Notes: generated by a model not told the origin, from the sequence alone. Counted from the stretch's first letter, positions 7,268 through 8,438 are shown. The stretch is DNA of 27,803 nt from a virus (IMGVR_UViG_2531839664_000018), one strand, 5' to 3'. Made by a program: numbers and translations.

Positions 7268-7450
7268 TATTCCTCCCGGCCGGGATAGTGTATTAAATCA
7301 GATATGGAGTGGGCTGTAGTCCGGAAGCCTGAATGACACACGGGGACTACAGCCCAAGAAATGAAAAAAGGCCACGCAGTTGCGCAGCCTGATAAACCCT
7401 GGTTAAAATCCACACGATAACAACACAACAATATCAGTATCTCATGCTAT

Positions 7451-7477
7451 TGCCCGAACCCATTCGGGCATTTTTTA
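7451..7477 (+). terminator. Plus-strand rho-independent terminator
   Basis: TGCCCGAA-ccca-TTCGGGCA followed by TTTTTTA. Confidence 0.5.
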
Positions 7478-7481
7478 CCCA

Positions 7482-7506
7482 TAAAAAAGCCCCTCCGGAG
7501 AGGGGC
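7482..7506 (-). terminator. Minus-strand rho-independent terminator downstream of the TerB-like locus
   Basis: GCCCCTC-cgga-GAGGGGC preceded on plus by AAAAAA (U-run on the minus transcript); lies back-to-back with the plus-strand terminator at 7451-7477. Confidence 0.5.
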
Positions 7507-7709
7507 ATGTTTGCATGCACATTCTTTTTCTTGCATGGTGCCGGGTGCCTCCCGGTGAATTCAGTATCAGCACCTGAATCCGCGATTATCACATATACCT
7601 GGTTGCTGATTGCCCCTCCGCACAGGGGGATTCACCATGCAGTAGTATTTTTAATAAACAGCAAATAAAAAAATCAAGCATTATGCAGGCTGTTTCTTTT
7701 TATCACCGG

Positions 7710-7841
7710 CTACAGCAATACCACAATGCCGCAGACCAGCACCCCATCCGCCAGCACCGACATGATTCTGCTGGTGAAATCCACCATCACCACCAGAAAC
7801 AGCAGGAGTGCAGCCACAGCCAGGCGCAGTTTTACCGTCAC
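7710..7841 (-). CDS. Possible small hydrophobic protein (43 aa) overlapping the TerB-like stop
   Basis: GTG start overlapping the TGA of the upstream gene (GTGA), GGAG 8 nt upstream; VTVKLRLAVAALLLFLVVMVDFTSRIMSVLADGVLVCGIVVLL*. Speculative. Confidence 0.2.
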   Translation of the reverse strand: MTVKLRLAVAALLLFLVVMVDFTSRIMSVLADGVLVCGIVVLL

Positions 7842-8269
7842 AGGTGATTCTCCAGACGAAGACCCAGAACACCGGCAATCTCTTCCAGCACCTTGCGCTC
7901 TTCCGGCTCAATTTCGCCGTCTGCCTCCGCAATGGCCACCGCCACATCCAGCACATCTTCCGCTTCACGCGTATCGTGTTTCACATCCTCGATCTCACGT
8001 AACGCCGCACGACGACCAATTTTAAAGTTCGTATCCAGCTGACCGATAATGGTTGCGCTAATCGCATTAATTTCTGACGTAAACGCGGACAGCGCAGGCT
8101 GATTACGCAGTACCTGTTCGATCTTCGCTTTCTAGGAAGCCTCACATTCACCATCTGCACAGGCCACCAGGTAGGCAGCATTAATAACCGCCTGTGCCAG
8201 ATCACGTTTCTCAAACTTTTTAATTTCCACTGCCGCTCGGCGGGCTTTTTTACCAAAAATACCAAACAT
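7838..8269 (-). pseudogene. TerB-family (tellurite-resistance TerB-like) gene interrupted by an in-frame amber codon
   Basis: ATG 8269 with AAGGA RBS; 45 codons (MFGIFGKKARRAAVEIKKFEKRDLAQAVINAAYLVACADGECEAS) then TAG at 8132-8134; same frame continues 98 more codons (KAKIEQVL...AVAIAEADGEIEPEERKVLEEIAGVLGLRLENHL*) to TGA at 7838. Two A-x-ADGE repeats typical of TerB. ORF-track entries 7681-7968 and 7981-8298 are out-of-frame shadows. Confidence 0.65.
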
Positions 8270-8400
8270 CGTGACGTTCCTTTGGGTGGGTGAGCCAACG
8301 CCCGGGAGCGATCTGCCCACAGAGAAAGTCACACTGACCACTCCGTAAGCTCCCCCCCGAAAGGCTCTGTGGTTGATATGCGCCGGGCGTGGCGCAGATA

Positions 8401-8425
8401 CAAAAAAGGCCCGCCGAAGCGAGCC
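8401..8425 (-). terminator. Minus-strand rho-independent terminator after the tRNA cluster
   Basis: On the minus strand GGCTCGC-TTCG-GCGGGCC (one G-U pair, TTCG tetraloop) followed by TTTTTTG. Confidence 0.55.
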
Positions 8426-8438
8426 TGGAAAATAAGTG

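Follow-up and report, generated by a model that had tools for sequence, protein, structure and literature searches.

An amber allele of the TerB-family gene tciA at the moron site of an Stx-phage-type lambdoid prophage

The DNA analysed here is a viral sequence of 27,803 nucleotides (IMGVR_UViG_2531839664_000018), referred to in the following as the window. The part under study is a slot between a group of phage tRNAs and a nanS-p type esterase gene, which carries the two genes tciA and tciB together with two small RNAs. Following the direction of the minus strand, the slot, its contents and its neighbours are these:

8729..9787, minus strand: DNA methyltransferase, the upstream neighbour of the slot, an ORF of 352 aa; annotated 'DNA-methyltransferase' in the near-identical O121 RM8352 locus
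8439-8688, minus strand: three phage tRNAs, called by ARAGORN, by Rfam tRNA matches and by the RefSeq annotation of the identical locus
8613-8688, minus strand: tRNA with anticodon CAT (tRNA-Ile according to RefSeq)
8529-8605, minus strand: tRNA Arg-TCG
8439-8515, minus strand: tRNA Arg-TCT
7268-8438: the tciA-tciB/small-RNA slot, with tciA, tciB and STnc100 on the minus strand and AgvB on the plus strand
8407..8426, minus strand: terminator-like hairpin downstream of the last tRNA and upstream of tciA (consensus scan only)
7838..8269, minus strand: tciA, TerB-family pseudogene by nonsense mutation, a frame of 143 codons, recognised by translation, Pfam, PHROG, a PDB match and RefSeq
8132..8134, minus strand: amber codon TAG at codon 46 of tciA, in place of GAG (Glu)
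7838..7984, minus strand: ORF of 48 aa starting with GTG, the 3' part of tciA, matched end to end by phrog_3920
7710..7841, minus strand: tciB (DUF3927), hydrophobic peptide of 43 aa, recognised as an ORF, by Pfam, PHROG and RefSeq (WP_001344632.1)
7477..7666, minus strand, the strand of late transcription: STnc100-family small RNA (Rfam RF02076)
7415..7476, plus strand, convergent with STnc100: AgvB anti-GcvB small RNA (Rfam RF02702)
7369..7390, minus strand: terminator-like hairpin that separates the small-RNA block from the nanS-p start (7267; consensus scan only)
5419..7267, minus strand: nanS-p type SASA carbohydrate esterase, the downstream neighbour of the slot, present here as three ORFs

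The genes thus follow each other in the order antiterminator Q, methylase, three tRNAs, tciA, tciB, nanS-p type esterase and holin, and the near-identical O121 locus of strain RM8352 is annotated with the same order. The first-pass annotation of this DNA had described the sequence methylase, tRNA(Ile, Arg, Arg), cargo, nanS-p and holin, which is what is seen both in the window and in the RM8352 annotation. It had also called the slot equivalent to the place of stx, and the comparison with the Stx1 phage BP-4795 supports this. There, the order is Q, stx1A, stx1B, an intergenic block, yjhS/nanS-p, S and R, so that stx1AB is located between Q and a homologous intergenic block followed by yjhS/nanS-p; positions 7268-7642 of the window are 85.8% identical to the block directly 3' of stx1B in BP-4795, as also in dozens of Stx1a phages. 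Both the position, from Q to nanS-p and holin, and a flank homologous to that of an stx-bearing phage are therefore those of a moron site, and the slot is the one which has been published for Stx-phage-type lambdoid prophages, downstream of PR'.

Tree et al. (2014) have described morons downstream of PR' which are followed by convergent small RNAs and then by a conserved phage ORF, an arrangement found in the Sakai prophages Sp3, 4, 9, 10, 11, 15 and 17 as well as in the Stx2 phage (PMC4104026). The slot resembles the moron site of Stx and Stx-like prophages in its cargo downstream of Q, its convergent small RNAs and its conserved phage ORF, but differs from that of Stx prophages in carrying a tciA pseudogene and tciB as cargo instead of stx. 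A TerB-like gene and a membrane-peptide ORF, which had been proposed as the content of the slot beforehand, are indeed both present; the slot is, however, not limited to these two, as AgvB and STnc100 are also located inside. Further upstream, the Q gene (10361..11182) is followed after about 85 nt by a GC-rich hairpin with a T-run at 10263-10278 (minus strand). It is here that tR' would be expected after PR', and the hairpin is a consensus match only.

The closest complete E. coli genomes are O121:H19 strains with 99.9% identity. In RM8352, a segment of 601 bases with tciA and tciB (7700-8300) is identical to the window, and over the 1171 bases of the slot there is one mismatch, at 8390, upstream of tciA. 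Over 11 kb, two substitutions and four single-base deletions separate the two sequences, all of them outside of tciA and tciB. RefSeq lists the RM8352 gene I3S_RS06785 as a 'tellurite resistance TerB family protein' and as a pseudogene with an internal stop; the DUF3927 family protein WP_001344632.1 follows this pseudogene, and a class II holin is found in the flank.

Two of the single-base deletions, near 6607 and 6371, split nanS-p, which is intact in RM8352 and encodes 616 aa there. The deletion near 6607 lies in a run which is T5 in the window and, on the coding strand of the reference, A6; the two deletions could be either assembly indels or real frameshifts. Two further single-base deletions with respect to RM8352, at 3835 and 3874, are located in the transposase region of an IS3-family element, which contains an ALIL pseudoknot at 3791-3905. 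Next to the holin, one IS copy is present in the window, two in tandem in RM8352. Elsewhere in the window, Rfam finds a sok antitoxin RNA at 13625-13799 on the minus strand (114 bits), in agreement with a Hok/Gef gene annotated for this prophage in RM8352, as well as a DicF small RNA at 22794-22845 on the plus strand (74 bits).

In a megablast search of phage records, the module was found under the names tciA and tciB in Escherichia phage JLK-2012, while PPyecE_EH1910 has it as 'TciA/TerB-like protein'. Both share with the window the two-gene module, its GTGA overlap and its position, from the Q/tRNA region to yjhS/nanS-p. The nucleotide identity is 89-94% and the protein is near-identical except for codon 46: the two phages have Glu46 and a TciB of 54-55 aa, whereas the window has an amber codon at 46 and a TciB of 43 aa. 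The names tciA and tciB derive from tciA/B/C of phage P1, which are non-essential there (PMC10695390). In the literature on tciA and tciB we found no test of the function of intact TciA or TciB, the P1 essentiality table being the only relevant entry, and PADLOC supported no known defence system, its match to PDC-S48 being sub-threshold (E=0.002). The tciA lesion, its tciB partner, the insertion site and both small RNAs have all been described or annotated before, and the locus is therefore not new.

The frame of tciA begins with ATG at 8269..8267 and reaches the amber codon at 8134..8132, after which 97 sense codons follow up to the TGA at 7840..7838. Only 45 of its 143 codons can be translated. 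The frame behind the amber codon is open as stated in the first-pass annotation, but its count of 98 in-frame codons includes the final stop. When codon 46 is read as X, the read-through product matches the Pfam family TerB (PF05099) over residues 26-138 with 44.6 bits (cut-off 24.4), and the part behind the amber codon alone still reaches 32.3 bits, while no Pfam family was matched by the N-terminal fragment of 45 residues. In addition, TciA belongs to phrog_632 'tellurite resistance' (E=6e-69) and residues 15-137 match the Klebsiella TerB structure 2JXU_A in phmmer (E=4.3e-8). Translation, Pfam, PHROG and the 2JXU match thus agree on a TerB-like gene with TAG at codon 46, as had been noted from the sequence. 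As the frame does not run uninterrupted over the whole domain, tciA is a pseudogene member of the TerB family.

The TerB match downstream of the amber codon is no coincidence, as the intact homologues run over 143 aa with Glu46 and none of them ends at codon 46. Every residue outside of codon 46, including Cys37, occurs in intact alleles, so that the earlier view of a single nonsense codon in an otherwise undamaged gene is confirmed; downstream of codon 46, the protein sequence of the window is that of many intact copies. As read from the sequence, Glu46 is the final acidic position in D39-G-E-C-E-A-S-E46-K, which recurs as D117-G-E-I-E-P-E-E124-R, and aligns with Glu124 in this second copy of an internal DG-x5-E(K/R) motif (DGECEASEK and DGEIEPEER). 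TciA has the same domain (PF05099) as the Klebsiella TerB of the ter operon (2JXU). The two are, however, distant in sequence, and the gene in the window is a stand-alone phage gene accompanied by a small membrane peptide, outside of a terZABCDE operon. Any link of tciA with tellurite, colicin or phage resistance is one of name, by analogy only, and no tellurite phenotype is known for it.

The GTG start of tciB shares the bases GTGA (7838-7841) with the TGA of tciA and is preceded by GGAG 8 nt upstream. Its product, which has two hydrophobic stretches and a GRAVY of 2.0, is strongly hydrophobic and matches DUF3927 (PF13064) with 45.6 bits (cut-off 25) and phrog_1470 'TciB-like' with E=1.6e-21. 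The hydrophobic ORF of 43 aa overlapping the stop, previously described as a possible membrane peptide, is therefore real as an ORF but not a new one, being TciB of the DUF3927 family. At 43 aa it falls short of the full length of about 53-55 aa, relatives having mostly 54-55 aa: the stop at 7710-7712 is a second amber codon, TGG having changed to TAG at codon 44. This short form, found in 13 of 68 TAG loci versus 2 of 70 GAG loci, keeps both hydrophobic stretches but is without the basic C-terminal tail. The sequence past the tciB stop differs from that of PPyecE_EH1910 by a one-base deletion in an A-run. With tciA interrupted, translational coupling of tciB to tciA would be lost while its own GGAG remains, and translation of tciB without tciA appears plausible by way of this GGAG.

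Downstream of tciB, the STnc100-family RNA covers model positions 1-206 of 206 in RF02076 with 148.1 bits (gathering threshold 47), and AgvB matches RF02702 with 96.5 bits (gathering threshold 56), with no deviation from the consensus in its 62 positions. The two RNAs converge, and each is terminated by a hairpin and T-run of its own, the hairpin of STnc100 being at 7489-7506 and that of AgvB at 7451-7470. AgvB contains the motif CACAACA, which has been defined as the GcvB-R1 target mimic (PMC4104026). For the AgvB copies of O157:H7 Sakai, Hfq binding and relief of GcvB repression have been reported, and AgvB blocks GcvB and helps growth in bovine rectal mucus (PMC4104026). By the same mode of action, the AgvB of the window would sequester the core small RNA GcvB through mimicry of its mRNA target, and the small RNAs are probably active in the present strain as well. 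TerB (PF05099) also appears in a 2026 preprint, as a conserved gene neighbour of related prophage small RNAs. From AgvB to the nanS-p start (7268-7414), Rfam gave no match above threshold, an OmrA-B hit of 21 bits being at chance level, but the minus-strand hairpin in this stretch (7369-7390) is a strong one; the stretch may encode one more small RNA like those known at the moron site.

Alignment with homologues shows that the sense codon at 8132-8134 is GAG (Glu). In the first sample of haplotypes, codon 46 was GAG in 30 of the 30 that do not carry TAG, preceded by either TCA or TCC, and all TAG haplotypes read TCC TAG. As TCC GAG exists among the intact alleles, one G-to-T transversion is sufficient for the lesion. 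A dinucleotide change from TCA GAG to TCC TAG was considered as well and dropped for the same reason.

The amber codon is widely distributed. Of 5426 complete E. coli genomes, 338 contain the exact 81-mer centred on TAG, among them O157:H7, O145:H28, O111, O103:H2 and O121; this collection is rich in EHEC, so that the counts do not represent population frequencies. The GAG version of the same 81-mer was found in none of the 5426 complete genomes, which indicates that TAG sits on a local haplotype of its own. RefSeq reports the 'internal stop' of tciA also in O157:H7 PV15-279 and O145:H28 RM13516, whose prophages are without the methylase and the tRNAs and one of which has a different Q; the prophages of RM8352, PV15-279 and RM13516 thus differ in Q type and in the presence of the methylase/tRNA region, and the TAG allele spans at least three prophage backbones. 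The full allele of the window, 463 nt with intact 5' end and TAG, is found at 99% identity or more in only 19 genomes. Sequences similar to tciA occur in 805 genomes at 2778 places, with a median of four places per genome and five in RM8352. Judged by this distribution, TAG is an old and widespread allele and not a private mutation.

For the comparison of alleles, IMG/VR was scanned with two symmetric exact patterns, the TAG and the GAG version of the same 38-mer, and each copy was classified by following its reading frame from codon 46 in both directions. Frequencies were taken from these two symmetric DNA-pattern scans, as a locus set ranked by tblastn leans towards intact alleles. The following classes were obtained:

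In-frame ATG, full length: 2 of 72 TAG alleles (the form of the window, with TAG as the only lesion); 54 of 71 GAG alleles
Unrelated sequence in place of the start and the first 17 codons: 41 of 72 TAG alleles; 0 of 71 GAG alleles
A7 for A6 at codons 7-8, ATG out of frame: 29 of 72 TAG alleles; 11 of 71 GAG alleles
Other small indels near the start: 0 of 72 TAG alleles; 5 of 71 GAG alleles
In-frame ATG, later premature stop: 0 of 72 TAG alleles; 1 of 71 GAG alleles

The in-frame ATG is gone from 70 of the 72 TAG alleles. GAG alleles also include divergent yet intact N-termini, e.g. MLGIFKKK versus MFGIF. Decay has accordingly continued in the alleles with TAG but not in those with GAG, as is typical of a dead allele: there is further 5' decay among the TAG alleles and not a single 5' truncation among the GAG alleles. 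In the window itself, the frame past TAG carries no further damage, the decay being seen in its relatives only, and this clean downstream frame is best explained if the window represents a common pseudogene either as a recombinant or in the form that has decayed least.

In its A7 form, the poly-A tract of tciA (A6 in the window, 8243-8251, codons 7-8) puts the ATG out of frame, and for O157:H7 PV15-279 RefSeq takes as start an in-frame TTG one codon further on. The tract may be a hot spot of slippage.

Purifying selection acts on intact tciA: 95 nucleotide sites are variable among the intact alleles but the amino acid varies at only 19 codons. Private variants, from haplotypes anchored by BLAST, show a nonsynonymous to synonymous ratio of 7:5 in broken and of 17:38 in intact alleles, a trend which is non-significant (Fisher p=0.10). 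Both results agree with a dead allele, though less strongly than the 5' decay does.

Taken together, the locus is very probably the moron site of an O121:H19-type lambdoid prophage in which tciA is null, a neutral and dispensable piece of cargo that has been spread by recombination and hitch-hiking. The cargo would consist of the tciA-tciB module followed by the convergent STnc100 and AgvB. One G-to-T change would have turned Glu46 (GAG) into TAG, ending translation after 45 residues at the cost of about two thirds of the TerB domain, and recombination would then have moved the allele from prophage to prophage, with successful EHEC lineages taking it along. Its persistence would be due to tciA being dispensable and present in several copies per genome, and not to its still being read.

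Carriers make up more than half of the genomes matching the 81-mer, which is a high frequency for a neutral null. This frequency, over several serotypes and prophage backbones, could also point to a selected loss, in which the amber allele would have spread since loss of TciA, with tciB and the small RNAs kept, benefits the lysogen or the phage, e.g. by removal of a costly or toxic TerB protein. Retention of a tciB of 43-55 aa in nearly all TAG loci and the independent disruptions of tciA, by TAG, by the A7 frameshift and by 5' truncation, would fit as well. However, hitch-hiking in clonal EHEC together with recombination of co-resident prophages explains the pattern without selection, and 54 of the 71 GAG alleles are intact and constrained, so that we regard a selected loss as unlikely. 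It is likewise quite improbable that selection keeps the amber tciA in place, whether through a benefit of TciA silencing to EHEC lysogens or through a role of the untranslated 3' part of tciA, at the RNA level, upstream of tciB and STnc100.

That the amber codon is read through or suppressed, so that full-length TciA is still made, perhaps conditionally, is very unlikely. The open frame past TAG and its protein, identical in the window to that of intact alleles, would be in keeping with it, but this identity is explained by a recent origin and recombination with intact copies, and the 41 of 72 TAG alleles without start codon and the 29 more with an ATG out of frame do not look like a coding frame under maintenance. 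An amber suppressor, which had been suggested as worth looking for, was not found: neither the window nor 42 related TAG loci contain a tRNA with the anticodon CTA, the anticodons present being CAT, TCG, TCT and TTT.

A split gene, in which the N-terminal peptide of 45 aa and the C-terminal fragment of 48 aa are each functional, is extremely unlikely. The family phrog_3920 corresponds exactly to this fragment of 48 aa and the region behind TAG scores on its own as TerB (32.3 bits), but the simplest view of the family is that gene callers produced it when run on a common interrupted allele, and 48 aa represent just the last part of the TerB domain. Moreover, the sole Shine-Dalgarno-like sequence, a GAGG 2 nt before the GTG, is too close, and the N-terminal fragment is gone from 41 of 72 TAG alleles. 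An error of sequencing or assembly in the window, to which the four single-base deletions in 11 kb with respect to RM8352, at least two of them in homopolymer runs, might lend some colour as the kind of change assembly noise produces, is already refuted for the amber codon, which is a substitution shared with RM8352 and with 338 independently assembled complete genomes.

With tciA as neutral and decaying prophage cargo remaining the preferred reading, the locus is a textbook example of how prophage cargo decays and its biology is ordinary. What is added here is that a single nonsense allele of tciA is common to hundreds of EHEC genomes and to several types of prophage, and that it is tightly linked to a later 5' truncation of the gene. 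The lesions of tciA, i.e. TAG, the A6/A7 tract and the 5' truncation, could be used as markers to trace recombination between EHEC prophages. The working cargo of the slot is probably its small RNAs, and the intact, sequence-conserved part of it is most likely AgvB and not the protein genes.
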